Positions 51-19,773 of a stretch of 19,773 nucleotides of DNA are shown one piece after another. How positions within the stretch are numbered: the stretch's first letter is position 1; every line of letters begins with the position of its first letter. This stretch comes from a virus: UHGV virus genome UHGV-0141098, one strand, 5' to 3'. The notes under the pieces are model-generated. The model saw only the letters and a list, made by a program, of their open reading frames with translations. It was not told where the DNA came from and did not search any database. The position numbers were made by a program, and so were the translations under genes.

Positions 51-161
51 TCACATGAAGTAGTTGGCAATAACGCCTGGTATATCCCTGGTACTGATAC
101 AGGCAGTGTGCTGTTCAATTGCCTCGATCATCTCTTCACGGGTGACTAATGACGTTCTCAT
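51..161 (-). CDS. small hypothetical protein, 36 aa (MRTSLVTREEMIEAIEQHTACISTRDIPGVIANYFM)
   Basis: Not in the ORF track (below length cutoff). ATG at 161..159 is preceded by an AGGAGGG Shine-Dalgarno and overlaps the stop of the upstream ORF in an ATGA arrangement. No recognisable motif. Confidence 0.3.
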   Translation of the reverse strand: MRTSLVTREEMIEAIEQHTACISTRDIPGVIANYFM

Positions 162-379
162 AGTCCCTCCTGAGCAGAAGCGTTAACAGGGAGGCACCAG
201 TAACTGAGAGAATTGCGTGAATCAGTGGAAAAACGGGCAGAGAAAATACATGGGGCGTCAGGAAGCTGAGAGCGGGCCTCATCTTCTGTTGGTGCAATAA
301 CGAAGTGATAGTGACGTTTTTGGCAGGAGTAAAAGCGCCAGATAAATTCAGGATGAGTTGGGGTAGGGATAGTAGCCAT
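158..379 (-). CDS. small hypothetical protein, 73 aa (internal start of track ORF 158..607)
   Basis: ATG at 379..377 is preceded 9 nt upstream by AAGGAGG. The longer track ORF (start 607) would read through the terminator hairpin at 544..573, so the internal start is preferred. Stop overlaps the start of the 36-aa ORF. Confidence 0.35.
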   Translation of the reverse strand: MATIPTPTHPEFIWRFYSCQKRHYHFVIAPTEDEARSQLPDAPCIFSARFSTDSRNSLSYWCLPVNASAQEGL

Positions 380-543
380 ATTGGCAGCCTCCTTAGACGT
401 TGGTATGTAACCACCGCAGAAGAGACCAATCTTGCTGGCGGTGGACTGTACGGAGTTGGCCTTACTGGCGTCCAAGGTAACCAGCCTACCCGAAGGTAGC
501 CCCATACAGCCCACCATTGTAGAGGTGTGCGTGTACGCCGATA

Positions 544-573
544 CAAAAAAAAGACGCGAGCGGCGTCTGTATC
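544..573 (-). terminator. putative Rho-independent terminator downstream of pacB
   Basis: On the minus strand: GC-rich 5-bp stem GACGC/GCGTC with a 5-nt loop, followed by T8. An outer GATACA/TGTATC pairing can extend the stem. Confidence 0.45.
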
Positions 574-698
574 GCCTTAGACTTAAGCGGGAGGCCAATC
601 CCGGCACCCGTTTTAATGAGGTGCCTGATAAGCATAAACCGAAAATGCCTCAAGGCGCAAGAGGTCAGGCTCAATGTAACATCGGTAGTTAAAAAACA

Positions 699-715
699 CA
701 ATTTATTAGAGCAAA
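699..715 (-). promoter_or_regulatory. C1-repressor-type operator (match to P1 consensus ATTGCTCTAATAAATTT)
   Basis: Minus strand reads TTTGCTCTAATAAATTG, 15/17 to the recalled P1 C1 operator consensus. Lies 3 nt after the pacB stop codon; contains a -35-like TTGCTC. Confidence 0.55.
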
Positions 716-718
716 TAT

Positions 719-2203
719 TCATTCATTAAGCCATGCCAGAGCCTCATCAACCTGCGCTTCGTCTTCGACGCTAAGCACTTCATCCTGGGGAACATAATCC
801 GCCAGCATAGCGAAACAATATGTATCCCAATGGTCTGGTGAGTGCAGGTTGAGTTTTTTCTTCATATCCTCCTTACTCATCACCTTCCATTGACCTGCGG
901 AGTTAATCCCTACAGGGATTTTCGACGCTTCCTCAATAGTTTCATTACCCTTATCCAGTCTCATACGACCAGATTTTACGGCCTCTGCGGCTTGAACGTT
1001 GGCATAAGCACGTTTATCAAAGTACAGGCTCTTATCTTCACGGCTATGCATCTTTTTACCCCAGCGTATACGCTGTACGGTAATACCATAATACTCGTAC
1101 ATCAGATCCGCTGTTGCTTTACCCAGGCCATCTCCATCTATCGCTATGGTGATATTGGGGAATCGCTCAGGATTACATTCTGCGAAAATTTTGGCGGCAA
1201 GCTGCGTTTCTGTAACGTCTGTGTATTCCAGCATTCGATAGTTGATTACACGGCGTTTATTTCGCTGGCCGGACACCATCATGATATTGATAACTGACTT
1301 ATCCCGTCCCGTACCACCAGCAACGTCCACACATGCAAGCCAGCCCCATCCTTTGGCAATCTTAACTTTCCGCCGCGTTGCACGTTCAACCTCATCACGT
1401 CCAAGAAGGAAGCCGTCCTGTGATTTAGGGAATAGGCCGCGCACCTTAATCATGTACATAGGGTTATCACGCCCGCCGTACTCCGCCAGCTTCATTTTGA
1501 TAAATTCTGGCGTTACCAGCGGTGATTCCTCACTGTTAAGCGTGATCGCCGTATAAACGCCATCTGGGTTACCAGGACGCTTGGCCAGTTTATGGTGAGT
1601 ATCGTAGAAATAGCCGCTTGGGCGTGTAGGCTGTGACAGTAATAAGATGCGGTTATCCTGTCCGGTAAGAGCACCGGTGATGATACCGAAAGCTCTATCA
1701 CTGACACCGGAGGCTTCATCGATAATATACAGAAGATGATCTGCGTGTTCACCGGCGAGAGCTTCTTCACTTCCCAGACGAAAGCCCTTCGGTACTACAG
1801 TCCATACACCTTTACCAGTAACCTCATAGAAAGCGGTTTCTGTCAGAACAAAATAATCAGCAAGCCATGGAAAACGGCTGGTGGCAGTAGCCCAGTTTAT
1901 CTTGATGTACTTGAATATACCGGTCATTACCTGCTGAATTTTGTTCGCAACGATAATGGCGCGGGCACCGGGATACATGATTATGAACAACATGATCATG
2001 ATAGAAGTCATGTCTGATTTCCCGGTACCGTGACCAGACGAAACAGATGTCTTGCTACCCTGTTCCTGCACAGACTCAATAATCAGATCCTGCTGCCAGG
2101 TAGGTGTTTTGCCGAACAAAACATCAGCGGCCGCAATCCAGTCATAACGATATAGCGCCACCAGCTCGCGCCAACGTGGATCCGTTACGCAACTTCTGGC
2201 CAT
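719..2203 (-). CDS. pacB: P1-type pacase (terminase) large subunit PacB, 494 aa
   Basis: 494-aa ORF with a P-loop-like GHGTGKS segment. Size and position (directly after a 397-aa pacA that contains a pac site) match P1 PacB as recalled. Start overlaps the pacA stop by 1 nt. Confidence 0.8.
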
Positions 2204-3396
2204 TAATCATCATCCCCGTATAGCTTGCGGGTGACTTCTTCGTCTTCCTCCTCGTCTTCGTCCAGGTCTTGTTCCAGCCATGGGTCGTTTGATACACCTT
2301 CAGTATCAACATCCCCATAACCGCCTGTATCAACGATATCGGCGATTTCTTCCCTACGCTGCTCAATCCACAATGCGGCATCGGCGCGGCGGTTGGCGGC
2401 CCGTTCTCGCGCAACTTTGTCCAGATCTTCAAGAGAAGGGCCACCGACGGCTGTTTGCCTTTCCTCATCATCGGTATTGGTCTTAGGAGCACGCAGATCG
2501 GCTTTGATTTGCTCCAGCATCAGGGGCGGCACTTTCCCGCCATGCGCCTCGATGAATTCAGCTGCTTCCAGCACTGACCAGTTATTTTCACGCTTTCGTT
2601 CGTATGCCAGCTTAACAATGCCAGCTTGCCCCATAGACAAAGCGTGCTTTTCCGCCTCCCGGCTTTCTTTTCGATAGTTATTCAGGATGCTGTAAATGGT
2701 GTTGATCAGGCTGCTTATCTGCGCGGAACAGCTGTTTAGCATGCTCGCGATACGGTATTCAGGCGGAGTACCTTCATCATCGTCTTTTTGCTGATCGCGC
2801 ATTTCCTGCACCAGGCGAATACACGTATCCCGGGCGTTCTCCAGCATAAGGAGATGAGAAAGAGACTTTTCCAGAAGAGTGGTTTCCAGAACATCAGCTC
2901 CGGAACGACGCAACATAGCGCGCGCGGCCTTCCACGCTTCAACGTTATCTATCAGGTAATCGCCAGCTTCGAATTCAAAGCGTTCACCATCATCATCCAG
3001 GGTGTCGCGTTCCAGGCGATCACGTAAGGTACGGTGGGCGCGGGTGATCACGTCATGATCATCAGAACGATCATTTATGCGCTTATTTTGGCGCTTAGCG
3101 TTCTCGACTGCGGCACTGACAACAGCATTAACTCTTTGTTTTTCAGCCGTTTCAGCCACAATGTGATCACCTGCACGTTGATCATTAGCGTGATCAATGA
3201 TCATGCTTTTTAGTGGTTTCCTGACAGGCTTATTTGGCTTACGGCTATCCGCTGTTCCGGTGTCTTCTTTGAATGCACGGAGATAACGACGTGCGGTGTT
3301 TGGGTTGAGATTAAACTCGGCGGCATATTGTGCGATGGTGTAACCACCATCTCGCGCCAGGCGAGCAAAATTCTTCTTGTGATCGTCCCAGGTCAC
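2203..3396 (-). CDS. pacA: P1-type pacase subunit PacA (pac-site recognition), 397 aa
   Basis: 397-aa ORF with GTG start and AGGAAG Shine-Dalgarno. N-terminal HTH-like segment, acidic C-terminus. Contains the hexamer-cluster pac site internally, as in P1 pacA. Confidence 0.8.
3017..3203. other. P1-type pac packaging site (two clusters of TGATCA hexamers carrying Dam GATC sites)
   Basis: GATC-containing hexamers at 3017-3022, 3045-3050, 3056-3061, 3068-3073 and at 3164-3169, 3179-3184, 3191-3196, 3198-3203, with a hexamer-free segment of about 90 bp between the clusters. This matches the known P1 pac architecture of hexamer clusters flanking the cleavage region inside pacA. Confidence 0.75.
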
Positions 3397-3482
3397 TTAT
3401 GCTTCCTTTCGTATAAAACTCTTTTTGACGCGAGGGTAACGAAAGTCACATGTCAAAAGGCCCGGAACGGGCAAGCAATCAA

Positions 3483-3935
3483 TCAGATACGTGCGGATGT
3501 GGCATTACCGTAATGACGGTGCTGACGGACCACCTTATTGAAAAGTTGACGCGCCATTACCCAAGGCTGGTGCTCCCGGCGTTCCTTTTCGTCCTGCGTC
3601 ATATAGAGTTCGTTCTGGAGTTTTTCATCAAACCGGCGCGGAGCGCGGCTGCGGCGAAAGAATTCAGGATTCAGAGAGTGGATCTGAAATCTACGTGGGC
3701 GTGTACTGTCATCAATCAAAACAGACGAATACTTAGACACAGCGATAGCCTTTAAGCGCAGATAAACATCGCGCTTATCGACATCCAGATGCGGGTATTC
3801 CTTTTCAAGAATTGCTGCGAGTTCTTTCGCTGATAGAAGAGATTTAGTGCGGATCATGTAATCCGCAATCTCGTACGATGTTATTCGTGAGTGATTTATT
3901 TCCATGAAGTGGCGTCCCTGCCAGTTAAGTAACAT
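3483..3935 (-). CDS. lpa: late promoter activator Lpa (gp10)-like protein, 150 aa
   Basis: 150-aa ORF directly upstream of pacA. AGGTGA Shine-Dalgarno 4 nt before the ATG. A C1-type operator and -35/-10-like elements lie upstream at 3936..4022. Name assigned from position, size and operator context rather than recognised sequence. Confidence 0.6.
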   Translation of the reverse strand: MLLNWQGRHFMEINHSRITSYEIADYMIRTKSLLSAKELAAILEKEYPHLDVDKRDVYLRLKAIAVSKYSSVLIDDSTRPRRFQIHSLNPEFFRRSRAPRRFDEKLQNELYMTQDEKERREHQPWVMARQLFNKVVRQHRHYGNATSARI

Positions 3936-4005
3936 CCTGTCACCTACTGATTAGCCCATGTCAACTAATCAACGTGGAATATAATACCCTCAACTAAAGA
4001 AATAG

Positions 4006-4022
4006 CAATACATTAGAGCAAT
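4006..4022 (-). promoter_or_regulatory. C1-repressor-type operator upstream of lpa
   Basis: Minus strand reads ATTGCTCTAATGTATTG (core ATTGCTCTAAT exact). Followed by TTGCTA -35-like and TATTAT -10-like elements before the lpa Shine-Dalgarno. Begins 1 nt after the stop of the upstream 347-aa gene. Confidence 0.55.
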
Positions 4023-4023
4023 T

Positions 4024-5067
4024 TTATCTAACACTCGACGAATGACTTGTGATAACGCCGACTCCAAGCGCGTAATCAAAGAACAATCGTTGATGCATCG
4101 CCAGCCTACCGTGCGTCTTCTCCCAATTATCGCGGTCACGCTCAATATCACGCTGGCATGACTGGCACAGAGGAATTGCGTAAATGTCATGCGCGCATAA
4201 TCGACTATGACGAACGATATAAGGCGTAATGTGAGCGCCAGCTCCCGCCGCTCCGCACCCACAGCATGGACGGGAAGCAACAAAGTCCATGTACTCAGGT
4301 AATTTTAGCGATTGCAGTTTTGGTATTTTGAAATGCGCCATGCCAGGGTCGGAGTCAACATCCACAGGGCATACTTTTGCACGCATCGGCGCGGCGCGTT
4401 CTTCCATCATCTGAACATATGCTGTAGCGCGATCGTCATACGGGCGAATATCCGCCTCTTTCAGAGGTCCGCTATCCTGCGTTGCGGCTTTCATCTTATT
4501 TATTGATATACGGCAAACTTCTTCCGGCATCAGGTGCATCATGTTGCACATGAAAGCCCACCAGCACAGTTCCTGAATACTTAAATCATGGCCATCTGAA
4601 AGCCCCATTTCCTGACGGGCGACATCCAGTATCCAGTTAACGCGATTATTGTGCAGCGTTTCTTTCAGCTCATTAAAACCACGCATCCGGTAATGGTTAT
4701 CGTGATGCCAGCACAACAACACCGCGCTATTGTCTCGTTCAGCGTGGACAATATGGTTGTCACACCAACTACGATCTGCGGCCTGGCATTGCCCCTCTTT
4801 CCTGCGCAACCACGCCACCAGCGAGTCAATTCCACCAATACGGCGAAACAGTTCATCGCTGTTAAAAAACGGCTGCAACGCCTCATTTGTTGCCATAGTT
4901 TGCTCGGAAACAACGAGGCCGTCGTCCATGTGCTCGATTAACTCACGCGGCACCGGCTCCATAATAAATTTACGGCCAGCCTCCACCAGCTTTCTGACTT
5001 CCTGATCCACTTTGAATGTGGCGACGCCAAGCTCTTTTTGTACAAAGGGAGTAATAATGGCTTTCAC
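4024..5067 (-). CDS. hypothetical protein, 347 aa, at the position of P1 pdcB (post-doc); C-terminal Cys/His-rich motif
   Basis: GTG start with AAGGTG Shine-Dalgarno. C-terminal segment [38 protein letters not shown] resembles an HNH/zinc-binding motif. Identity with pdcB is positional only. Confidence 0.55.
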
Positions 5068-5094
5068 ATCACACCTTTCATCACTGATTGGGCT

Positions 5095-5274
5095 TTATCT
5101 GCTGCCCGGCATTCTCTGTTTAAGCACAACCATTTCCTGACGGCATAACACAGCAATAGCGGTCCTGGCACCAATTTGCTTACTAACCAGGTATTGCTTT
5201 ACCTTGCGGCGACTCACGCCATCAAGAAGCATCTTTAACGCTTCACGGGACAATTTGTTGTATTTGCGTGCCAT
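5095..5274 (-). CDS. small basic protein, 59 aa, at the position of P1 pdcA
   Basis: Internal ATG at 5274 of track ORF 5095..5295, preceded by GGAG and lying 4 nt after the doc stop. The track start at 5295 would overlap doc. Lys/Arg-rich, possibly DNA-binding. Confidence 0.4.
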   Translation of the reverse strand: MARKYNKLSREALKMLLDGVSRRKVKQYLVSKQIGARTAIAVLCRQEMVVLKQRMPGSR

Positions 5275-5278
5275 TAAT

Positions 5279-5659
5279 CTACTCCGCAGAACCATACAAT
5301 CTACGTAACGTGGCGGCGACAGAAGATACAGATATCTCGCCAGTCGCAGCGCCTACAGTAAGGTCTGCCAGTTCAGGTGAATCAAATACCTGCACCCCGT
5401 TACGGCGTAGAAATAGCAGCGCACTGTTTAGCGCGGTACGCTTATTGGCATCATTGAATATATGCCCTCTCGCCGTAGCCACCAGGTAGGTGGCGGAGAC
5501 TTCGAAAAGGTCGGTGATCTCTTCGTAGGCAACTCTGGCCTGAACTCTCCCGATAATGGCCTCTGCCCTACCCGGATCTGACATTCCCGACAGGCCGCCG
5601 TAGCGGCTTATATTCGCATCATGAAGCGCAATAAGTTCTTCCGGTGATATATGCCTCAT
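5279..5659 (-). CDS. doc: Doc toxin (Fic-fold, death-on-curing), 126 aa
   Basis: Protein [22 protein letters not shown]...[12 protein letters not shown]... matches P1 Doc almost residue for residue as recalled, including the Fic-like HxFx(D/N)ANKR motif. Coupled to phd by a 1-nt overlap. Confidence 0.95.
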
Positions 5660-5880
5660 TATCGGTTAACCAGTTCCTTGTTGGTGGAGTCCAGGGTGTC
5701 AAACAGGGATGCAAATTCAGCATCCAGCGCCGCTTTTTTGTAGGCTTCGAAAGTAGCCTTGCTGACAATTACTGCTGGCTCACGGCCTCTGCGGGTGATT
5801 TCAACCTCTTCCCCGGCCTCAACATTGTTGAGCACTTCAGAAAGGTTGCCGCGCGCGGTACGGAAGTTAATGGATTGCAT
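5659..5880 (-). CDS. phd: Phd antitoxin (prevents host death), 73 aa
   Basis: 73-aa protein [49 protein letters not shown]... matches P1 Phd as recalled. Sits directly upstream of doc. Confidence 0.95.
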
Positions 5881-5884
5881 AAAT

Positions 5885-5920
5885 ACCTCATGTACTCGTT
5901 ATGTGTACACAATTATAAAC
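5885..5920 (-). promoter_or_regulatory. phd-doc promoter with palindromic autoregulatory operator sites
   Basis: Minus strand reads TTTATAATTGTGTACACATAACGAGTACATGAGGTATTTATG: a TATAAT -10, then the palindrome GTGTACAC and the related GAGTACAT, then the Shine-Dalgarno. Confidence 0.5.
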
Positions 5921-6056
5921 TTCACAGGCATAAAGCACCAGCACTTTGCGGCTTAACAAACCTCTAGGCAGATCATTCGTAGCCTAATGTCCGAACTGCT
6001 AAAGCATCCAAGTTGCTGTAGAATCACCGCCAATTACATAAGCCTGAAATAAGTGG

Positions 6057-7615
6057 ATGAAAATGACAAGTATTCAACAACGTGCAGAGCTTCATCGTCA
6101 AATCTGGCAAATTGCTAACGATGTCAGGGGTTCGGTCGATGGATGGGATTTTAAGCAATACGTTCTGGGCGCACTTTTCTACCGTTTTATCAGCGAAAAT
6201 TTTTCCAGCTATATTGAAGCCGGTGATGACAGTATCTGTTATGCGAAACTGGATGACAGCGTAATTACTGATGACATTAAAGACGATGCCATCAAAACTA
6301 AAGGCTACTTCATCTACCCCAGTCAGCTTTTCTGCAACGTAGCGGCGAAAGCAAATACTAATGACAGACTGAATGCAGATTTAAACAGCATCTTCGTTGC
6401 TATCGAAAGTTCTGCTTACGGTTATCCTTCAGAAGCTGACATCAAAGGTTTGTTTGCTGATTTCGATACCACCAGTAACCGCCTGGGTAACACCGTTAAA
6501 GATAAAAATGCCCGCCTGGCTGCGGTTCTGAAAGGGGTTGAAGGGTTAAAACTTGGTGACTTCAACGAACATCAGATTGACCTGTTCGGTGATGCCTATG
6601 AGTTCCTGATTTCTAACTATGCGGCAAATGCCGGTAAGTCAGGCGGCGAGTTCTTTACACCGCAGCACGTCTCCAAGCTGATTGCACAACTGGCTATGCA
6701 CGGGCAGACCAGCGTTAACAAAATCTACGACCCGGCAGCGGGTTCCGGCTCACTGTTGTTGCAGGCGAAAAAACAGTTTGATAACCACATCATCGAAGAA
6801 GGCTTTTTCGGTCAGGAAATCAACCATACGACCTATAACCTGGCGCGTATGAACATGTTTTTGCACAATATCAACTACGACAAGTTTGATATCAAGCTGG
6901 GTAATACACTGACTGAGCCGCACTTCAGAGATGAAAAACCGTTTGACGCCATCGTATCTAACCCACCGTATTCGGTGAAATGGATTGGCAGCGATGACCC
7001 GACGCTGATTAACGATGAGCGTTTTGCCCCGGCTGGCGTTCTGGCCCCCAAATCCAAAGCTGACTTTGCGTTTGTACTACATGCGCTGAACTATCTTTCG
7101 GCCAAAGGTCGTGCTGCGATTGTCTGCTTCCCGGGTATTTTTTACCGTGGCGGCGCAGAGCAGAAAATCCGTCAGTATCTGGTCGATAATAACTATGTCG
7201 AAACCGTAATTTCACTGGCACCGAACCTGTTCTTTGGCACCACCATTGCAGTAAACATTCTGGTGCTGTCTAAGCATAAAACGGATACCAAAGTTCAGTT
7301 TATTGACGCCAGCGAACTGTTCAAAAAAGAGACTAACAACAATATCCTGACCGACGCCCATATCGAACAGATTATGCAGGTATTTGCCAGCAAGGAAGAT
7401 GTTGCTCATCTGGCGAAATCTGTCGCGTTTGAAGCCGTTGTAGCGAATGACTATAACCTGTCGGTGAGCAGCTATGTGGAAGCGAAAGATACTCGCGAAA
7501 TTATCGATATCGCTGAGTTGAATGCAGAGCTGAAAACCACGGTCAGCAAAATCGACCAGTTACGCCAAGACATTGATGCGATCGTGGCTAGAATTGAAGG
7601 CAGAGAGGTACAGGC

Positions 7616-7619
<4 letters not shown>
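6057..7619 (+). CDS. hsdM: Type I restriction-modification N6-adenine DNA methyltransferase subunit HsdM, 520 aa
   Basis: AdoMet-binding motif [10 protein letters not shown] and catalytic NPPY motif (SNPPYSVKW). N-terminus [17 protein letters not shown] matches EcoR124-family HsdM as recalled. Stop overlaps the hsdS start (ATGA). Confidence 0.95.
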
Positions 7620-8836
<1,217 letters not shown>

Positions 8837-8957
8837 TTGACCATTGCTACCGATCGGGCCACCTTAACACCCGGTCAGTATATAGACTATTTTTTACGCG
8901 CCGGAAGTCACTCTTAACGCCCTTCCGGCTCTTGCCAGGCGGCACAAAGGATGCGCT

Positions 8958-11900
8958 ATGACTCATCAAACACACACCATTGCTGAATCCAATAACTATA
9001 TCGTCCTTGATAAGTACATCAAAGCTAAGCAAACAAGCGACAGCTACCAGAGCGAATCGGACCTGGAACGTGAACTGATTCAGGACCTGCGGAATCAGGG
9101 TTATGAATTTATTTCCGTAAAATCACAGTCGGCAATGCTGTCCAATGTTCGGGAACAGCTTCAGAACCTCAATGGTGTGGTGTTTAATGACAGCGAGTGG
9201 CGGCGTTTCACGGAGCAGTATCTGGATAACCCGAGCGATGGCATTCTGGATAAGACCCGTAAAATCCATATCGACTATATTTGCGACTTTATTTTTGATG
9301 ACGAGCGTCTTGAGAACATCTATTTGATAGATAAAAAGAATCTCATGCGCAATAAGGTGCAGATTATCCAGCAGTTTGAACAGGCGGGTTCTCACGCTAA
9401 CCGTTATGACGTAACTATCCTGGTTAATGGCTTACCGCTGGTGCAAATCGAACTGAAAAAACGCGGCGTGGCGATTCGTGAGGCTTTCAACCAGATACAT
9501 CGTTACAGTAAAGAGAGTTTTAACAGCGAAAATTCCCTGTTTAAGTATCTGCAGCTGTTCGTCATTTCCAACGGCACTGATACCCGTTATTTTGCCAACA
9601 CGACAAAGCGCGATAAAAACAGTTTTGACTTCACCATGAATTGGGCGAAATCAGACAACACGCTGATTAAAGACCTCAAAGACTTTACCGCTACCTTTTT
9701 CCAGAAACATACTCTGCTGAATGTTCTGGTGAACTACAGCGTTTTTGACAGTAGTCAGACGCTACTGGTGATGCGACCGTACCAGATTGCCGCCACCGAG
9801 CGCATTCTGTGGAAAATTAAGAGTTCCTTTACAGCGAAGAACTGGTCAAAACCGGAAAGCGGTGGGTATATCTGGCACACTACCGGTTCTGGTAAAACCC
9901 TCACCAGCTTTAAAGCCGCGCGTCTGGCAACAGAGCTGGACTTTATTGATAAAGTCTTCTTTGTGGTCGACAGGAAAGACCTCGATTACCAGACCATGAA
10001 GGAATATCAGCGTTTTTCGCCAGACAGCGTCAACGGCTCGGAAAATACCGCAGGCCTTAAACGAAATCTGGATAAGGACGATAACAAAATTATCGTCACT
10101 ACTATTCAGAAACTCAATAACCTGATGAAAGCAGAAAGCGATCTGCCTGTATATAATCAGCAAGTGGTGTTTATATTTGATGAATGCCACCGCAGCCAGT
10201 TTGGAGAAGCGCAGAAAAACCTGAAGAAGAAATTCAAACGCTATTATCAGTTTGGTTTTACCGGCACCCCTATTTTCCCGGAAAACGCCTTAGGCTCAGA
10301 AACAACCGCCAGCGTATTTGGTCGTGAATTGCATTCGTATGTAATTACCGATGCGATTCGTGACGAAAAAGTGCTCAAATTCAAGGTGGACTACAACGAT
10401 GTGCGGCCACAGTTTAAGTCTTTAGAGACAGAAACTGACGAGAAAAAACTGAGTGCGGCTGAAAATCAGCAGGCGTTTCTTCATCCCATGCGTATTCAGG
10501 AAATCACGCAATATATTCTGAATAATTTCCGCCAGAAAACCCACCGTACCTTCCCTGGCTCAAAAGGTTTTAATGCTATGTTGGCAGTGAGCAGCGTGGA
10601 TGCCGCGAAAGCCTATTATGCGACGTTTAAACGGTTACAAGAAGAAGCCGCTAATAAATCGGCTACCTATAAACCGCTGCGTATTGCGACAATCTTCTCC
10701 TTTGCCGCCAATGAAGAACAAAATGCCATTGGTGAAATTTCCGATGAAACTTTTGATACCAGCGCAATGGACAGCAGTGCTAAAGAGTTTCTGGATGCTG
10801 CAATTCGTGAGTATAACAGCTATTTTAAAACTAACTTCAGCACCGACAGTAACGGTTTTCAGAACTACTATCGTGATTTAGCCCAACGGGTTAAAAATCA
10901 GGATATCGATCTGTTAATTGTCGTGGGAATGTTTTTAACCGGCTTCGATGCTCCAACATTAAACACGCTATTCGTCGATAAAAACTTGCGTTTTCACGGC
11001 CTGATGCAGGCATTTTCCCGCACCAACCGCATTTATGACGCTACTAAAACCTTCGGTAATATTGTCACGTTCCGGGATCTGGAACGCTCAACCATTGATG
11101 CCATAACGCTGTTTGGTGACAAAAATACCAAAAATGTGGTTTTAGAAAAGAGTTATGCAGAGTATATGGAAGGCTTTACTGATGCTGCCACTGGTGAAGC
11201 TAAACGCGGCTTCATGACAGTAGTTTCAGAACTGGAACAACGGTTCCCTGACCCTACCAGTATTGAAAGTGAAAAAGAGAAGAAAGACTTCGTTAAACTG
11301 TTTGGCGAATACCTGCGTGCCGAGAACATCCTGCAAAACTATGATGAATTTGCCACGCTAAAAGCCCTGCAACAAATCGATCTTAGCGATCCTGTTGCGG
11401 TAGAAAAATTCAAAGCAGAACATTATGTGGATGATGAAAAGTTCGCTGAATTGCAAACAATTCGTCTCCCTGCTGATCGCAAGATTCAGGATTATCGTTC
11501 TGCCTATAACGATATTCGCGACTGGCAGCGCCGTGAGAAAGAAGCTGAGAAAAAAGAGAAATCAACCACTGACTGGGATGACGTGGTTTTTGAGGTCGAT
11601 TTGCTGAAGTCTCAGGAAATAAACCTGGATTATATCCTTGGACTGATTTTCGAACACAACAGACAAAATAAAGGCAAGGGCGAAATGATCGAAGAGGTCA
11701 AACGCTTAATTCGTTCAAGCCTGGGGAACCGGGCGAAAGAGGGCCTGGTGGTCGATTTTATTCAGCAAACGAACCTGGATGATTTACCAGACAAAGCCAG
11801 TATCATTGAGGCATTCTTTACGTTTGCTCAACGCGAACAGCAACGTGAAGCAGAAGCATTGATAAAAGAAGAAAATCTCAATGAAGATGCAGCAAAACGC

Positions 11901-12074
11901 TATATTCGCACGTCTTTAAAACGCGAATACGCCACCGAAAATGGCACAGAATTAAACGAAACATTACCAAAACTTAGTCCGTTGAATCCGCAATATAAAA
12001 CGAAAAAACAGGCAGTTTTCCAGAAAATCGTCTCGTTTATTGAGAAGTTTAAAGGCGTAGGCGGAAAAATATAG
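8958..12074 (+). CDS. hsdR: Type I restriction endonuclease/translocase subunit HsdR, 1038 aa (EcoR124I-like)
   Basis: PD-(D/E)xK nuclease residues D151, E165, K167 ([20 protein letters not shown]). SF2 helicase motifs [12 protein letters not shown] and TGTP. Length of 1038 aa and N-terminus [14 protein letters not shown] match EcoR124I HsdR as recalled. Confidence 0.95.
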
Positions 12075-12153
12075 CCCAATTCGTGTTTTTCTTGCGGGTT
12101 CTTAATTAAACCCGCAAGAGCTCGTGGGGTTCCAAATGGCTAATATACTCCCC

Positions 12154-12240
12154 TTACCCATGCGCGACGATGCCGCCAAAAGTGATAGAGAACAGCCAGA
12201 AATAGATCGCGGTCATAATGATTTTGAATGCCGTGTTCAT
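12154..12240 (-). CDS. small hydrophobic peptide, 28 aa (MNTAFKIIMTAIYFWLFSITFGGIVAHG)
   Basis: Not in the ORF track. ATG preceded by AGGAG 8 nt upstream. One predicted transmembrane helix. Lies downstream of an operator-associated promoter-like element (12325..12341) and is convergent with hsdR. Confidence 0.35.
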   Translation of the reverse strand: MNTAFKIIMTAIYFWLFSITFGGIVAHG

Positions 12241-12269
12241 ATCTTCAGCTCCTGTGATTGATTGGATAT

Positions 12270-12300
12270 ATGCCGCGCCCCTTGCGGCATGTTTTTATTT
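12270..12300 (+). terminator. Rho-independent terminator (probable hsdR terminator)
   Basis: Stem ATGCCGC/GCGGCAT (7 bp) with a 7-nt loop, followed by GTTTTTATTTT on the plus strand. About 200 bp downstream of the hsdR stop. Confidence 0.6.
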
Positions 12301-12324
12301 TCACTCTCTCTGTTTTAAAAATCA

Positions 12325-12341
12325 AGATTTATTAGAGCAAT
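12325..12341 (-). promoter_or_regulatory. C1-repressor-type operator with overlapping promoter-like elements
   Basis: Minus strand reads ATTGCTCTAATAAATCT (16/17 to consensus). Its first base is the last base of the upstream gene's stop codon. -35-like TTGCTC, a 17-nt spacer, then TAAAAC. Confidence 0.6.
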
Positions 12342-12847
12342 TATTGTTGATGAAGAAGCGCATTTTCATACTCCCTGACCATTAACGTAAGTACGCCGTG
12401 ACTCCTGAAAACACGCGCCACTTCAATCTTATCTTCCAGCGCGAACGCAATTTTACTTAGACCAATTTTCTTCAGGAGATCAATCTTTGCTGGACCGTCA
12501 TTTCTGTCATCGGTGGCAGGACGCATAGATAGCAAAGGCTCAGCCCCATTTGTTACGTGCTTACGCAACCAGGCTCGTGTTTTATCCCTGGCTATCTCAC
12601 AGCGCCCGGTTACAAACCAGAGGGTGTAAATGCCGGACAACTGGCGCACCATATCAATAACTGGAGTGATGGGAGCATCAGTGTCACAGGCAAGGTTAAA
12701 CTCGTTCCAGTGCTCTGTTAATGCACCTTTACCTGGTGGCGGAAGCAAATGCAGTCTGTCTTCAGTTGCCTCTGATATTGTTCCATCAATATCGACTATG
12801 ACGATGTACGGACGTTCCTGGTGTGCGTGTTTATTGTAAATACTCAA
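12341..12847 (-). CDS. HAD-superfamily phosphatase-like protein, 168 aa
   Basis: N-terminal HAD motif I (IVIVDIDGTISE, DxDGT). TTG start with GGAGG 4 nt upstream. No closer assignment possible from sequence alone. Confidence 0.6.
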   Translation of the reverse strand: MSIYNKHAHQERPYIVIVDIDGTISEATEDRLHLLPPPGKGALTEHWNEFNLACDTDAPITPVIDMVRQLSGIYTLWFVTGRCEIARDKTRAWLRKHVTNGAEPLLSMRPATDDRNDGPAKIDLLKKIGLSKIAFALEDKIEVARVFRSHGVLTLMVREYENALLHQQ

Positions 12848-12865
12848 ATGCCCTCCTCATTGGAC

Positions 12866-12900
12866 GAAAAAAAATGCTGGTGGGCGCACTCCACCAGCAT
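12866..12900 (-). terminator. Rho-independent terminator ending the IS1-interrupted operon
   Basis: Perfect 10-bp stem ATGCTGGTGG/CCACCAGCAT with a 7-nt loop, followed on the minus strand by T8. Lies 20 bp past the stop of the 12921..13829 ORF. Confidence 0.7.
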
Positions 12901-12920
12901 TAAAAGTGACACTGTAACCA

Positions 12921-13815
12921 TCAGCGAACGTAAATAGTGCCGCCGTTCTCTTTTTCCCATGCATCGCTACGTGCATAGCAAACATCGAGAAGTCTTCTTG
13001 CCGCAGTTTCCTCTAAACCCAATTCGACAACCAACTGCTCATGACGGCGGGTAACCACATCAAACAGGGTATGCAGCCCTTTAGTTGCCAGATCATCAAT
13101 GAATTCCGGTTCGAACGGCAGCTCTGCATCTGCCAACATAACCTCTTGCGCCCACTCAACTCGACGGACCAATTCCGGGCGGCGGCTTTCCATCTCTTTA
13201 CAGATCAATTCATGGAAGAACTCTACCCAACCTTCCGGCTGGAACTCGCGGAAAATTGCCAACGGCTGGAAGTTTGGCATCAACCATTCGTTGATTCGGA
13301 TATCAATGGCATAGCCCATGTCGCAGCAGAACTGATAAGCAAAGTCCAGCTTAGAAACGATATAAGGACGCTCGTTATTGAACTCTTTAGGCGATGAGAT
13401 CCCATAAGCCAGGAGGCGCGGGAAGAAGGAGATTTGCCCTAACGTCGGATGAAGTTTGCTTGCAGGGAAACGGCGCTCAGTAATGCCATACATTTCCTTC
13501 TTGAGCGTCGCAAATTTGGCATTCTCATTAACCAGCGCGGTAACCTCTGCTTTTTTATTAGCAAATGCCACGCGCGCTTCGCTTGCATCTTTAATAGTTT
13601 TTTTGAGCTGTTGGTTAAGGTCAGCGACCTGCTTACGCAGTTCCTGTCGCTCGCTTTTAGCTTTGTTATAGCGTTTCTCAAGGTTAAAAGGATCAAGTTT
13701 CATGATCTCTTTATATTGAGATTTTAGCGTTGAAATCTGTGAGTTCCGCAGTTCAACCATCGCGGTCATTTCATTGAGTTTTGTTTCCAGCTCAATGCTT
13801 ATACGTTCGGCATTA
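12921..13815 (-). pseudogene. 3' portion (about 295 codons) of a ~420-aa coiled-coil protein gene interrupted by IS1
   Basis: The track ORF 12921..13829 begins with a TTG inside the IS1 left inverted repeat. Its reading frame is continuous with the ORF 14584..14959 once IS1 and one copy of the 8-bp duplication are removed. Confidence 0.7.
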
Positions 13816-13870
13816 GGTAATGGTGCCAACTTACTGATTTAGTGTATGATGGTGTTTTTGAGGTGCTCCA

Positions 13871-14146
13871 GTGGCTTCTGTTTCTATCAGCTGTCCCTCC
13901 TGTTCAGCTACTGAAGGCGTGGTGCGTAACGGTAAAAGTACTGCCGGACATCAGCGCTATCTCTGCTCTCACTGCCGTAAAACATGGCAGCTACAGTTCA
14001 CTTACACCGCTTCTCAACCCGGTACGCATCAGAAAATCATTGATATGGCCATGAATGGCGTCGGATGTCGCGCCAGTGCACGCATTATGGGCGTTGGCCT
14101 CAACACGGTTTTACGTCACTTAAAAAACTCAGGCCGCAGTCGGTAA
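13871..14146 (+). CDS. insA: IS1 InsA (transposition inhibitor; N-terminal part of InsAB' transposase), 91 aa
   Basis: Protein [51 protein letters not shown]... matches IS1 InsA as recalled. Confidence 0.9.
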
Positions 14147-14568
14147 CCTCGCGCATACAACCGGGCAGTGATGTGATTGTCTGCGCTGAAATGGACGAAC
14201 AGTGGGGCTACGTCGGTGCTAAATCACGCCAGCGCTGGTTGTTTTACGCGTATGACAGGATACGGAGGACGGTTGTGGCGCACGTATTCGGTGAACGCAC
14301 GCTGGCCACGCTGGAGCGTCTTCCGGGCCTGCTGTCGGCCTTTGAGGTCGTGGTATGGATGACGGATGGCTGGCCGCTTTATGAATCACGCCTGAAGGGA
14401 GAACTGCACGTTATCAGCAAGCGATATACGCAGCGCATTGAGCGGCATAACCTGAATCTGAGGCAGCATCTGGCAAGGCTGGGCAGGAAGTCACTGTCGT
14501 TCTCAAAATCGGTGGAGCTGCATGACAAAGTCATCGGGCATTATCTGAACATAAAACACTATCAGTAA
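14065..14568 (+). CDS. insB: IS1 insB reading frame (expressed as InsAB' by -1 frameshift at the A6C motif)
   Basis: Frame encodes ...[26 protein letters not shown]...[15 protein letters not shown]...KHYQ, typical of IS1 InsB. The slippery motif AAAAAAC is intact at 14122-14128. Confidence 0.85.
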
Positions 14569-14583
14569 GTTGGAGTCATTACC

Positions 14584-14959
14584 CGGCATTATCAGCACGC
14601 TGGTTGGCGTCATGCGTCGCATCGTCGATCGCGTCCTGTTGCTGGCGTTTCAAATGTTCAATTTGCAGCTGAAGCTCTTCAATTTCTTTACCCTTCAGAC
14701 CGAGATCCAACTGCATATTTTCAGCTGCATCTACCAGGGAGTTATGGCTATCAGCTTCTGCGTTATAAACATCAATAAGCTGTGCGTGAAGCATCTCCGC
14801 TGACTGAACCGCATTATCAAAAAAACGTGCTGTGAGGTCATCACAACTAACGCGGCGTTGCGCGGCCCGGATGTTCTGGATAATGGCCGGGATACCGGCA
14901 TTCAGGACATCAGGGATAGATACATTTTCGATTGATTGGTTTTGTGCTGAAGTGCTCAT
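14584..14959 (-). pseudogene. 5' portion (125 codons) of the IS1-interrupted ~420-aa coiled-coil protein gene
   Basis: The track ORF 14579..14959 ends at a stop supplied by IS1 sequence. Its frame joins the 12921..13815 portion across the target duplication (...RADNA | ERISIELE...). Confidence 0.7.
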
Positions 14960-14960
14960 T

Positions 14961-15179
14961 TCAAAGTTCCGTATTAGCTTGTGCTTCGGTCATTTTTCCT
15001 AAGTATGAAGGTGGAAGGACTACGCAATTTGTATCCAGTCCCTCACCTATGGCAGCCTGTAAAATTCTGGCTAAGGTGAGTCTCTTGTTGCGATACCTGG
15101 TGATGACATGCCTGATACCGCCGGTCAGCGTAACAAAGGCGATCAGCCAGTAGTGATATTTCCGTCGGAATGGCCACAT
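14961..15179 (-). CDS. hypothetical protein, 72 aa, first gene of the IS1-interrupted operon
   Basis: AGGTG Shine-Dalgarno 4 nt before the ATG. One hydrophobic segment (YWLIAFVTLTGGI). Stop is 1 nt from the start of the downstream interrupted gene. Confidence 0.45.
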   Translation of the reverse strand: MWPFRRKYHYWLIAFVTLTGGIRHVITRYRNKRLTLARILQAAIGEGLDTNCVVLPPSYLGKMTEAQANTEL

Positions 15180-15193
15180 AGTGCACCTTATAG

Positions 15194-15210
15194 ATTGCTC
15201 TAATAAAAAA
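15194..15210 (+). promoter_or_regulatory. C1-repressor-type operator, plus orientation
   Basis: ATTGCTCTAATAAAAAA, 14/17 to consensus. Its A-tail runs directly into the hairpin at 15211-15231. Confidence 0.55.
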
Positions 15211-15240
15211 CGTGATGAGTGTACATCACGTTTTAAAAAT
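15205..15240. terminator. bidirectional Rho-independent terminator hairpin between the two operators
   Basis: Stem CGTGATG/CATCACG (7 bp, extendable by the flanking A/T runs) with a 7-nt loop. A-run on one side and T-run on the other, so a U-tract follows on either strand. Confidence 0.6.
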
Positions 15241-15242
15241 AT

Positions 15243-15259
15243 GGAATTATTAGAGCAAT
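15243..15259 (-). promoter_or_regulatory. C1-repressor-type operator, minus orientation
   Basis: Minus strand reads ATTGCTCTAATAATTCC (14/17, core exact). Begins 1 nt after the stop of the 233-aa gene. Followed by the same ATTTTTAAAAC element seen after the operator at 12325. Confidence 0.55.
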
Positions 15260-15260
15260 A

Positions 15261-15962
15261 TTATTCTGATTCTCGCTCAAAAAATGAGCTGATAAGGGGA
15301 AGCCAATCCTCTGACACTTCGCGAGGTCGCGGTTTGCCGTGGAAAAAGATTATTCGGCAGTCTTTTGGTAATGCCCCATTCCCCCTGGAGTAACGCGCGC
15401 TCGCATATTTCGAACCAGGTTCCACAACATCGGCCTTGTAACTTACAAACCATCCCGGATACAGATCCTGAAATGCTGGTGTATCATCACCCATAACCTT
15501 CCGCAAAAACCCCTGCTCACCCCAGCATTCAGTAGTAACACAACGAGCAATCCAACCTTCCGGATCTTGCCAGAATGCACTCCAGATATGCACTTTTACA
15601 CTATTTGGTATCCACAGGGCACCGCTGCCACGATATTGTGGATGGTAAAAATCCCTAAGCATGGTGAAGCTGGTTGGTGGATTCTCTAGGATTGGGCGTA
15701 TATCACCGGCAATAACCGTGTCCAAATCCAGATAGAACAGATCATCGGTTATATCCGGTCGGAACAACTCGATTTTCGCCCACCAGCCACGGCACTTTTG
15801 CCACTGGTTGATCAATGGGACAACTTTGACGCCAGGTACATGTAAACGCTTCAGGTCTGTCAGGCAAATAATTTCATAGCCTTTTGGCAGTTGATTAACC
15901 AGCCACTGCACATCGGAAGCGTTATAGTCACCACCAGAGCGAAGAACTAAAGCAATCTTCAT
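15261..15962 (-). CDS. hypothetical protein, 233 aa, with a DxD-like motif (possible nucleotide-sugar transferase)
   Basis: Segment [12 protein letters not shown] suggests a DxD-type metal/nucleotide-binding site. Start overlaps the phosphatase stop (ATGA). Functional call is tentative. Confidence 0.5.
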
Positions 15963-16651: not shown

Positions 16652-17259
16652 TCTTTAAGAGTCATCTGCGGAATACCTCCCATTTTCCCGCATGAAACAA
16701 CGTCAATCTGTTCACGCGCAGACTGGAATAACAAAGGCAGGTGACTTAGATTTTTTGGCGTGCCGCCGGAGTGAACGCGTGGTTCTTGTGTAGCGTCAAC
16801 GCCCACCAGGGCGACATGTTTGAATCCGATATGGAAAGCCAGGTTCAGAGCACCATATGCACTATTGCCGCTGGCAATTTCATTCTCATCTTCGCAAAGG
16901 CCGAAATGTGCGGACCAGCGCCACGCCCACCACTCGGGAGAATTCGTATTTTTTGGCTCCGTGCCGCGCTCAGCCACACGACGGAAGCACAGAACGCCAT
17001 CTCTGACTTCACGTTCTTTAACATCGGGTAGTGCCATGCAATAACAAACACCACGGCGACGGCGGCCACGACCAACGCGCCGCATATTGTCTGGCGATGG
17101 ATCAAGGGTGAAAAAATAAGAAGCGCGGTTAAGCCAGTCGATGGCCCCATTGACCGCTATAATCGGCACTCCGCGCGGCGCAACAAAGTTTGCGGCGCTT
17201 GGGCCACTGCCGACGATAATAACGCGATCACTGCCTCTAAATTTATTCTTGGGAAACAT
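16633..17259 (-). CDS. Rossmann-like protein with GSGPS motif (MptE/DUF115-like), paralog B, 208 aa
   Basis: Motifs [24 protein letters not shown] and VALVGVD are shared with the upstream paralog. The family assignment is from recalled motif resemblance only. Confidence 0.55.
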
Positions 17260-17819: not shown

Positions 17820-17982
17820 TCATTTCAGCGATTACCGGGTCCACTACAGCATCTGCTTCCTGTTCATTACGCGGCATGATCGATGCCAGCGATTCATAAT
17901 TAGCCTTGAATGACACGATTATTCTCCCGATGTTAATGTGCGCTATATCAAAGAGCACATATGCACTAATTAATTTATTATT

Positions 17983-18228
17983 TTAAGCAGCATACAACCA
18001 CTTGTCGCCGTTCAATACATGCTCAATAGCCTCACCCTTTTTAAGGCTTATGTATTCCAGGATGGCGGTTATCGCTTGTTCTGCACCATACGCAAGAACG
18101 ACGTAGTAACCTTCCTCTCTAAGCCTGCGCATCCAGGCGATCTGCTCTTTCGTCGGGGCTTTACCATTTGGTTCTTTAAGCTCAATTCGCATGCCGTGAT
18201 AAATACCGCATGCTTTATCGAGACTCAT
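17983..18228 (-). CDS. VRR-NUC-like small nuclease-fold protein, 81 aa
   Basis: Segment D..(11)..IELKEPNGKAPTKEQIAWMRRLREEGYYV resembles the VRR-NUC D...ExK core. Its ATG overlaps the stop of the truncated IS110-family ORF. Confidence 0.45.
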   Translation of the reverse strand: MSLDKACGIYHGMRIELKEPNGKAPTKEQIAWMRRLREEGYYVVLAYGAEQAITAILEYISLKKGEAIEHVLNGDKWLYAA

Positions 18229-18893
18229 GTCCGGACATCCAGATCAGCGATTTCGTCATGTAACTCGAGATAGCGTCGGGCAAGGGACTTTAATGAAATG
18301 CGATAAACGTTGGTTACATTGCGGTATTCACTGGCATCAGGTCTCCAGGAACCCAGGGTCCTGATGAGCTGCATGCGCGTCATATTTCTGAGCTGTTCAC
18401 GTAATTCATCCGGGGCAGAGATAATATTTGAATGGATAATCTGGAGAGCGACTCTGCGGGCTGATATTGCTGTTTTTCGGCAAGTTTTTAATACCCGCAG
18501 GGACTCAATCATGCCATCACGCGTTTTGGGAGTAACTGTCCTGATGCCTGAGAATGCTGCATGAGCGGCACATTCAGCATCAATTGTGTCACTTTTACCC
18601 CGTTTGCGTCGCTCCATCCGGTCTGGAGCAGTCACCTCAAGAACTTCTAACCCGGCGTTCTGAAAATAACGAAGCAAACCGGAACCATAGGTACCTGTGC
18701 ACTCAACACCAATTCGCTTTAATGTCCCAAACGAGGTCATCCATGCCAGCATCTGCCGGTAACCTTGTCGTGTTGTGGAGAAATACTGAGTCCCAAGGAC
18801 TTTATTGTTCTGATCTACGACAGCGGCAACGTGCAAATCTTTATGTGTATCCACGCCACCCACAACGGCAGCTTTGGTAACTTTATCAACCAT
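18225..18893 (-). pseudogene. IS110-family transposase, N-terminal DEDD domain plus linker only (222 aa, C-terminal domain missing)
   Basis: N-terminal pattern VGGVDTHKDLHVA ... ECTGTYGSGL ... KSDTIDAECAAHAA matches the IS110/IS1111 DEDD domain. The ORF stops before the expected C-terminal domain. Confidence 0.65.
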
Positions 18894-19111
18894 GACAGAG
18901 CTCCTGTGAGGAAACAGAGTTGAAACTCCAGACAGATAACCCGGACAGGACAGTAACGAGACAAGCCGTCAGGCCCTTCTTGAGTCACGCGCATCGGTGA
19001 GGAGATGCCTCGCATGAAGGCGCTTCCGGCAACCGACGGGTCCAGGGCAGGACACAAAAGGTCGATCGCTGTGTGAGTCAGGATGCGGGAAGGTCTTCAC
19101 TGCATCAGTAA

Positions 19112-19773
19112 TCACACCAATCTGGTTAAACGGCAAACTAAGTGGTGGTAAAGACTGACATCGGCATTATTACTATCGCTGTGGAACATCACCCCGACGG
19201 GCTTACCACGGGTTTCCCATGCCATTTCCAGTGCTTTCATGGTAAGCCTGCTGTCCGGCGAGAACGACATGGCCCAGCCCACTGGTTTTCTTGCGAACAG
19301 GTCGAGAACAACGGCGAGGTACGCCCAGCGCTTACCCGTCCAGATATAGGTCACATCACCGCACCACACCTGATTTGGCTCGGTCACGGCGAACTGCCGT
19401 TCAAGGTAGTTAGGGATAGCAACATGTTCATGACCACCACGTTTATACCGGTGAGTCGGCTGCTGACAGCTGACCAGCCCCAGCTCTTTCATGAGCCTGC
19501 CAGCAAGCCAGCGTCCCATCTGGTAGCCTCTCCGGGTTGCCATTGTGGCAATGCTTCTTCCTCCGGCCGAACCGTGGCTGATGCCATGTAGCTCAAGTAC
19601 CTGACTGCGTAATACAGCCCGTCTGCCGTCTGGTTTTTCAAGACGGTTTTTCCAGTATCTGTAGCTGCTGCGATGAACCCCGAACACATGGCAGAGTGTG
19701 GCCACAGGATAATGCGCTCTGAGTTTCCCGATTATCGAGAACTGTTCAGGGAGTCTGACATCAAGAGCGCGGT
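19112..19773 (-). mobile_element. IS3-family element fragment (OrfB-like transposase N-terminal two-thirds, 19112..19705; runs off the window)
   Basis: Integrase-core pattern [34 protein letters not shown] ... HSD matches IS3-family OrfB. The ORF ends about 20 aa after the second catalytic Asp, before the expected Glu, so it is truncated. Confidence 0.6.

Follow-up and report, generated by a model that had tools for sequence, protein, structure and literature searches.

Four minus-strand operators in the window, the whole 19,773-nucleotide stretch of the virus genome UHGV-0141098 analysed here, lie directly against the stop codon of the gene upstream of each. By homology to annotated operators of phage P1, all four are identified as operators for the P1 C1 repressor. 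The abutment most likely arises from tight genome packing, with an estimated probability of about 0.6. The window was scanned with the P1 C1-operator consensus ATTGCTCTAATAAATTT, as quoted in PMC8546580, with up to 3 mismatches allowed and the expectation taken from shuffles. The scan returned 5 matches compared with 0.12 expected, four on the minus strand and one on the plus strand, all of them asymmetric 17-bp matches. A further site, the inverted homologue of Oppp (Op83), was absent from the preliminary description of this DNA and closes the following list of operators.

699-715, minus strand: immunity operator of immI (c4-icd-ant), Op51/Oc4 type, TTTGCTCTAATAAATTG, predicted, with 2 mismatches to the consensus
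4006-4022, minus strand: Olpa (Op94; Op(lpa) in P7), controlling the lpa promoter, with the sequence ATTGCTCTAATGTATTG as in P1 Olpa
12325-12341, minus strand: OpmgT (Op88; Op(hea) in P7), identical to P1 OpmgT
15243-15259, minus strand: OpmgRa (Op86a; Op(sht[a]) in P7), identical to P1 OpmgRa
15194-15210, plus strand: OpmgRb (Op86b; Op(sht[b]) in P7), inverted, from the motif match and the P1 annotation
17960-17976, plus strand: homologue of Oppp (Op83; Op(hdm) in P7), inverted, 6 nucleotides (nt) past the TAA stop of the pmgM remnant (17983-17985)

The genes upstream of the four minus-strand sites are listed in the same order.

719-2203, minus strand: pacB (terminase subunit), upstream of the first site, with its TGA stop at 719-721
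4024-5067, minus strand: pdcB (347 aa, DUF968), from Pfam PF06147 and the P1 annotation, upstream of the second site
12341-12847, minus strand: pap (HAD/PNKP-type phosphatase), from Pfam PF25109, upstream of the third site
15261-15962, minus strand: pmgQ (hdmD; 233 aa), upstream of the fourth site

Counted between the final base of the stop and the initial base of the operator, the distance is +3 nt for pacB, where the trinucleotide ATA separates the TGA from the operator start at 715, and +1 nt for pdcB, whose TAA has its last base at 4024 and is followed by the operator start at 4022. The operator after pap starts on the last A of the TAA (12341), a distance of -1 with a 1-nt overlap, and the pmgQ TAA (last base 15261) is again +1 nt from its operator (start 15259). 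The preliminary description had placed these operators 0 to 3 nt after the stops; the adjacency holds at all four sites, and the true range is -1 to +3. Its statement that the operators at 12325 and 15243 are followed by the same element is borne out as well. The element, ATTTTTAAAAC, begins 2 nt after each of the two operators (12312-12322 and 15230-15240, both on the minus strand) and has no other copy in the window, with 0.01 expected.

The P1 record AF234172 carries Olpa, OpmgT, OpmgRa, OpmgRb and Oppp at the homologous positions, where they are labelled as C1 binding sites, and the window agrees exactly with P1 in their sequences and in how far they lie from the stops of pdcB, pap, pmgQ and pmgM. 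The likeness to the P1 and P7 operators extends from 17-bp identity at 4006, 12325, 15243 and 15194 to the flanking genes, the orientation and the promoter hexamers. The site at 699-715 lies outside the P1 homology of the window; the region aligns with P1 Oc4/Op51-c4-icd, which has another genomic context. This site fits the Op51/Op53 type and heads a c4-icd-ant module, and both of its deviations from the consensus are found in annotated P1 operators, T at position 1 in OrepL and G at position 17 in Olpa and Oref. The immI operator of P1 is located in the divergent sim/c4 region, whereas that of the window, like those of RCS47 and JL22, stands directly after pacB and before c1; thus it abuts a stop in the window and not in P1. 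The order pacB-TGA-ATA-operator-immI-ant-c1 is shared by the window, RCS47, JL22 and an E. marmotae plasmid, and P1, P7, SJ46 and JK004 have a convergent c1 gene 24 nt after pacB. The c1 gene itself falls outside the window, to the left; it lies just past ant in NZ_CP060066, RCS47, JL22 and the E. marmotae plasmid. Insertion of ant between pacB and c1 has been noted by Venturini et al. 2019 (PMC6906374). The elements described so far are already known; they are textbook P1 biology and constitute no new system.

The positional regularity was assessed genome-wide, using the 17 operator loci of the P1 annotation. A locus was scored as abutting if its proximal edge lay -10 to +6 nt from a stop read toward the operator, and the null was uniform placement of a 17-mer in P1 non-coding DNA, for which 12.7% of positions qualify. 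Abutment was found at 9 of the 17 P1 loci (binomial P = 8e-5, or P = 1e-5 with each operator conditioned on its own gap), and these and the following P values of this comparison are indicative only, since the interval was chosen after the data had been seen. With the same proportion of qualifying placements, the chance that four of four window sites abut is about 3e-4. The nine abutting P1 operators and their distances are as follows.

Omat: -10 nt, the gene ending at the internal TAA of the operator
Obana: -10 nt, the gene ending at the internal TAA of the operator
OpmgT: -1 nt
Oc1a: -1 nt
OpmgRa: +1 nt
Olpa: +1 nt
Oc1c: +2 nt
Orlf: +3 nt
Oppp: +6 nt, inverted

Two other P1 operators have a co-directional upstream gene at a greater distance (Oref at 132 nt and OrepL at 78 nt), and the remaining six loci are located in divergent regions. 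Cronobacter phage JK004 has the same operator word and about 71% identity at the pmgQ-pmgR junction. According to its own table of coding sequences, 9 of its 17 loci lie at -3 to +1 nt from a stop (P = 1.9e-5 for the interval of -10 to +6). Five of these are homologous to the P1 junctions at Oc1a, Olpa, OpmgT, OpmgRa and Oppp, and four have no P1 counterpart: three follow gene_53, gene_104 and gene_105 (which occupies the position of lxc), and the fourth overlies the stop codon of the pro homologue. The genome-wide scan of operators against stops therefore confirmed the enrichment in both P1 and JK004 and did not refute the regular placement that had been proposed.

Scanning phage D6 with the P1 consensus gave no match. 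The D6 operator word, TGTTAGAAAACTAATTT in the P1 orientation, was found de novo as the most frequent 10-mer, and the D6 site list is thus a prediction. About 15 TGTTAGAAAACTAATTT-like copies stand at promoter regions and are presumably a C1-type operator; Chi-like GCTGGTGG words are also among the most frequent D6 10-mers. Of ten non-divergent D6 loci, 3 abut a stop (2, -2 and -7 nt) and the others are 10-158 nt away. This looser arrangement indicates that the regularity is strong in the P1/JK004 lineage and not universal, a tendency rather than a strict requirement. The phage vB_EcoM-673R5 was left out of the statistics owing to its fragmented genes, and viral contigs searched by means of Lpa gave nothing but loci of 99-100% identity, which were of no use for comparison. 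The idea that the operator requires a TAA-like 5' flank was dropped, the non-abutting operators having unrelated flanks. Statistically, the regularity of position is solid, and it is perhaps under-reported: a literature search on P1 with stoperators and on phage-plasmids, which did not extend to the original P1 genome paper, found nothing on stop adjacency, and papers retrieved under the former operator names were all unrelated.

The abutment might be a coincidence or an annotation artefact if AT-rich operator flanks, full of stop triplets, ended any open reading frame (ORF). The operator does contain TAATAA, so that one frame must end by the internal TAA; the P1 ref and dmt genes end there, and the stops at -1 lie in the same frame. 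However, neither of the other two frames is closed within the operator, and still the stop is at +1 in seven junctions, and the enrichment is highly significant in two genomes. The gene ends also appear real, with pdcB, pap and lpa matching Pfam families over their length. Coincidence is therefore disfavoured and has only the slightest probability.

Tight packing is the favoured explanation. By homology to the annotated P1 operators, each operator supplies, as TTGCTC, or overlaps the -35 element of a sigma-70 early promoter (two of them predicted) for the next minus-strand unit, and C1 bound to the operator would keep RNA polymerase off that promoter in the lysogen. The units opened in this way are c4-icd-ant, lpa, pmgR-pmgS, and a small ORF together with the variable cargo. 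In the proposed arrangement, the operator would be the 5'-most functional element of each C1-controlled promoter unit and, as P1 has almost no spacer DNA, the preceding ORF would run up to it. The operator-bearing gaps of 66-88 nt would be fully used by the operator and -35 element, a 17-nt spacer, the -10 element and a 5' untranslated region of ~30-40 nt. The P1 genome has a coding fraction of 92%, and the spacing is 15 nt or less in 53 of the 88 co-directional gene pairs. Its promoter-bearing gaps cluster at 61-100 nt, for C1-controlled and late promoters alike. The reusable boundary module of operator plus promoter suggested in the preliminary description is essentially right and not new, corresponding to known C1-controlled operator-promoter units; in P1 and P7 these open the transcription of lpa, the pmgT region, pmgR-pmgS and c4-icd-ant. 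The promoters at three of the sites are given below.

3981-4008, minus strand: Plpa, a sigma-70 promoter (TTGCTA, 16 nt, TATTAT; former P94), from the promoter scan and the P1 annotation
12335-12340 (-35, TTGCTC) and 12312-12317 (-10, TAAAAC), minus strand: P2pmgT, a predicted promoter, from the P1 annotation
15253-15258 (-35, TTGCTC) and 15230-15235 (-10, TAAAAC), minus strand: PpmgR, a predicted promoter, from the P1 annotation

The P1 annotation assigns the -35 elements of PpmgR, P2pmgT and P1ban to TTGCTC inside the operator, those of Plpa, P2c4 and Pdmt to the 3' edge of the operator, and the -10 elements of PpmgR and P2pmgT to TAAAAC within ATTTTTAAAAC. Thus, ATTTTTAAAAC is the end of the 17-nt spacer together with the predicted -10 element. 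The Plpa -35 element shares 3 nt with the 3' end of Olpa, and Plpa was also recovered by the consensus scan. The annotation 'sigma 70 promoter' appears in the P1 record for Olpa/Plpa and Op51, and a P51a-like promoter arrangement can be read at the first site. The operators accordingly overlap or adjoin the sigma-70 -35 and -10 elements for the downstream genes.

P1, the window and JK004 share a cassette of ~30 nt, consisting of the operator, 2 nt and a T-rich tract ending in AA, whose flanks are unrelated. After many operators and a further 2 nt comes (A/T)TTTTTA(A/T). Examples are OpmgT, OpmgRa, Oc4, Odmt, Oc1e and OrepL in P1, the site at 699 in the window (flank 680-698), and the sites at 64882, 70485 and 83412 in JK004. 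Since many operators share the T-rich flank, the conserved unit is nearer 30 nt than 17 nt; the flank could reflect the promoter spacer and -10 element, or contacts of Lxc (Bof). P1 also has an operator-like site that is not annotated, ATTGCCCTAATGTATTT, in the first codons of darB and pointing to prt/pro (plus strand, 17166-17182 of segment L003). JK004 has a site with 1 mismatch in the homologous divergent darB/prt region (plus strand, 77919-77935 of the record, 30919-30935 of segment L011). The darB/prt site may serve the prt-pro unit as a C1 operator that has so far gone unrecognised.

Several observations weigh against packing as the full explanation. The late promoters of P1 are located in equally tight gaps, with their -22 box 20-160 nt from the stop, and none of six abuts. 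Among promoters and operators with a co-directional upstream gene, this contrasts with 9 of 11 operators (Fisher P = 0.002). As the late promoters stay off the stop, packing alone does not force every promoter there. The operator-stop distances are bimodal, either -3 to +3 nt or at least 19 nt, and two abutting operators have much more room than a promoter would require, Orlf being 148 nt from rlfA and Oc1c inside coi. Abutment is also seen at new junctions, namely pacB|immI in the window and the junctions of lxc, gene_104 and gene_53 with an operator in JK004, and this re-appearance hints at a selective or mechanistic advantage of the exact position. In addition, PpmgR and P2pmgT are predicted rather than mapped promoters.

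Folding of the junction RNAs showed that, among the four junctions, only the OpmgR region is strongly structured; the RNAs at 699, 4006 and 12325 fold no better than shuffles (z = 0.2, -1.0 and -1.1, respectively). The structure at OpmgR has the following core.

15207-15234, minus strand: terminator-like 11-bp hairpin AAAACGTGATG/CATCACGTTTT followed by a T-run, the 5' arm overlapping the -10 element TAAAAC

The T-run of the hairpin is the A-run of the inverted OpmgRb (Op86b) on the opposite strand. With Op86a and Op86b as an outer stem (15194-15259), the RNA fold reaches -26.9 kcal/mol (z = -9.1). A hairpin followed by T7 stands at the same place in JK004 (about 19972-20037 of segment L011) despite a different sequence, which suggests that a terminator or processing structure overlapping the promoter is conserved at OpmgR. 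Similar composites of operator, hairpin and T-run are found in JK004 at 70227 and 13242. RNA reading through from pmgQ could fold the hairpin, and RNA started at PpmgR, lacking the 5' arm, could not. If the hairpin forms only in the read-through RNA, the junctions would look built to isolate neighbouring operons.

The importance of read-through at these junctions, to which the OpmgR hairpin and T-run point, bears on a second explanation. C1, with Lxc, bound just past the stop would also block polymerase arriving from the upstream operon, so that each of the early operons, arranged head to tail, would be silenced separately in the lysogen; polymerase halted there would get no further than the stop codon, if that far, and could leave non-stop upstream mRNAs. 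The model for such a roadblock is the stoperators of cluster A mycobacteriophages (L5 gp71, Bxb1 gp69 and the TipsytheTRex repressor), which are asymmetric and present in about 20-30 copies per genome. These repressors stop elongation at sites in short intergenic spaces that are oriented with transcription (PMC9283540, PMC3029335), and P1 and JK004 have the same layout. P1 has many dispersed asymmetric sites (17 loci), and most abutting sites point in the direction of transcription (P1, 8 of 9; JK004, 7 of 9). The abutting Orlf and Oc1c are without a convincing promoter, and the contrast with the late promoters is significant. Transcription of phd-doc-pdcA-pdcB, and of lxc in JK004, would be expected in lysogens; a block before lpa or immI would therefore be useful.

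However, a literature search found no evidence that C1 blocks elongation, and we know of no experiment in which it does so. The co-orientation is already needed if TTGCTC is the -35 element, and in D6 the abutment is limited to 3 of 10 loci. In contrast to stoperators, most P1 sites overlap promoters, and inverted sites of the P1 type abut stops too (Oppp, the JK004 site at 80796, and the D6 sites of ref and cre). The inverted abutting sites weigh against a roadblock because reversal of the site abolishes the effect in L5. Analogy with the stoperators thus makes a roadblock conceivable, but on this balance it is unlikely. An extended version of it is doubtful to a somewhat greater degree. In this version, C1 operators would sit at stops on purpose, C1 with Lxc not only repressing the promoter but also halting upstream polymerases, as a proteobacterial counterpart of the stoperators. 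A block only 0-3 nt from the stop might deprive the upstream message of its stop codon, which would couple C1 occupancy to the removal of products such as Coi, PdcB or Lxc by transfer-messenger RNA. A parallel is offered by lac repressor at O3, at the 3' end of lacI, for which Abo et al. (EMBO J, 2000) reportedly described truncated non-stop lacI mRNA and SsrA tagging. There, too, the coding region upstream ends on an operator, but the parallel is purely one of analogy.

Recombination at operators, serving as module breakpoints, had been put forward as another origin of the arrangement. The dispersed, almost identical operators and their T-rich flank would then be short homologies for module exchange, which would mark breakpoints and explain the position at gene ends. 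Blast comparisons of the window with P1, P7, RCS47, JL22, SJ46, the E. marmotae plasmid and the plasmid of E. coli strain G5 showed recurrent breakpoints at 54, 721, 5956, 12150 and 18235, in addition to the ends of IS1. The divergence between the window and P1 starts inside the pacB stop codon (721), 3-5 nt from the operator. At this point the window, RCS47, JL22 and the E. marmotae plasmid all have the complete immI module, operator through ant, which is missing here from P1, P7, SJ46 and JK004. The ~30-nt cassette has three different left neighbours, the simA region in P1, pacB in the window and lxc in JK004, and a hypervariable cargo region follows OpmgT. Furthermore, the insertion in pJIE250-3 is at ATTG repeats in P1 1957-1982, which is Oref (Venturini et al. 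2019, PMC6906374).

However, 721 is the only one of the five recurrent breakpoints that adjoins an operator. The breakpoint at 5956 is the humD stop codon in P1, that at 12150 is 3 nt past the stop of a 28-aa ORF, with the cargo region starting 175 nt after OpmgT, and that at 18235 is about 10 nt from the end of the transposase ORF of the IS110 family (18225-18893). The pdcB-Olpa-lpa junction was found in 706 plasmids, in 594 of which at least 80% of it lies in one piece, and none of six sampled partial junction matches ends at Olpa. No shift in identity occurs at Olpa, OpmgT or OpmgRa; the identity to P1 changes from 88% to 98% near 3655, inside lpa. Selection acting on random recombinants can be expected to leave breakpoints at gene ends, and the breakpoints here, mostly off the operators and at ORF ends, track gene ends in general. 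Recombination at operators is thus largely unsupported, and as the origin of the abutment it is quite improbable. The arrangement recalls the modular theory of Susskind and Botstein and the boundary sequences that have reportedly been seen in phage HK620. As in the lambdoid phages, a short repeat stands at junctions of exchangeable blocks, and pacB|immI starts at an operator, but most breakpoints here are off the operators, and the repeats function in repressor binding.

The remaining content of the window identifies its source, on sequence grounds, as a P1-type phage-plasmid. Megablast searches grouped the 19.8-kb window with P1-like phages and phage-plasmids. The plasmid of E. coli strain G5 has 99.8% identity across the entire window, and P1, P7, RCS47, SJ46 and JL22 have 95-98% identity in the common parts. 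The minus strand carries the start of ant, icd, the c4 RNA, pacB, pacA, lpa, pdcB, pdcA, doc and phd, followed onward by pap, pmgS (split by IS1), pmgR, pmgQ, ppp and the pmgP-pmgN genes. On the plus strand, a type I hsdMSR cassette (6057-12074) takes the place of the humD-to-pmgT segment of P1. The features not yet located are the following.

158-379, minus strand: icd-like gene of the immI operon, Icd-like in NZ_CP060066 (a 99.8% identical plasmid) and aligned with P1 icd
434-521, minus strand: C4 antisense RNA gene (Rfam RF01695, 75.9 bits), downstream of the first operator
547-624, minus strand: match to an isrK-like small RNA (Rfam RF01394, 60.8 bits), between the immI operator and c4
3483-3935, minus strand: lpa (late promoter activator; Pfam PF25716, E = 2e-57), controlled by Olpa
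12154-12240, minus strand: ORF of 28 aa, MNTAFKIIMTAIYFWLFSITFGGIVAHG, hydrophobic and preceded by a good ribosome-binding site; no other ORF lies between it and OpmgT
14961-15179, minus strand: pmgR, the first gene under OpmgRa/b
18225-18893: transposase ORF of the IS110 family (PF01548), interrupting pmgM
19112-19705: ORF with an rve integrase domain (IS3 family)

The terminator scan placed a terminator-like hairpin at 552-568, inside the isrK-like match. As the match and the hairpin sit between the immI operator and c4, an IsrK-like small RNA may be the first product of the C1-controlled immI promoter. The P1 sequence is diverged in its own region matching the isrK position; isrK is an Hfq-binding small RNA. 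Another terminator-like hairpin, strong and of the intrinsic type (11 pairs, then T8), is located between pmgS and pap at 12873-12901 on the minus strand, so that pap would open a separate short unit ending at OpmgT.

The segment with the hsdMSR replacement spans 5957-12149 and is bordered by the humD stop (in P1 coordinates) and by the stop of the small 28-aa ORF, the variable cargo region beginning 3 nt past the latter. According to the P1 record, the flanks of the humD-pmgT segment are identical to those that surround the hsd loci of EcoDXXI and R124/3. P1 has the same 28-aa ORF with one substitution (T10A), unannotated in AF234172, and JL22 and SJ46 annotate a 44-aa ORF at this position, named 'membrane protein' in SJ46. 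The IS1 copy at 13815-14584, 92-95% identical to the IS1 of P1 and RCS47, splits pmgS and leaves an ORF of 302 aa compared with 420 aa in P1; because of this interruption the element may be defective for morphogenesis. The homology to P1 stops at 18235 inside pmgM, and the right end of the window (18225-19773) is rich in insertion sequences.

Approximately 80% of the operators with a co-directional upstream gene start at most 3 nt from its stop in two genomes that are ~29% apart. This placement includes junctions of independent origin, and the regularity may be under-appreciated. If the placement reflects only packing, it provides an annotation rule by which, in P1-like elements, one transcription unit ends and another begins exactly at a C1 operator. 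If it is functional, as insulation or as a roadblock, it would extend the stoperator idea beyond the mycobacteriophages, and it would bear on how resistance or defence cargo downstream of OpmgT is kept silent or expressed in P1-derived vectors and phage-plasmids.

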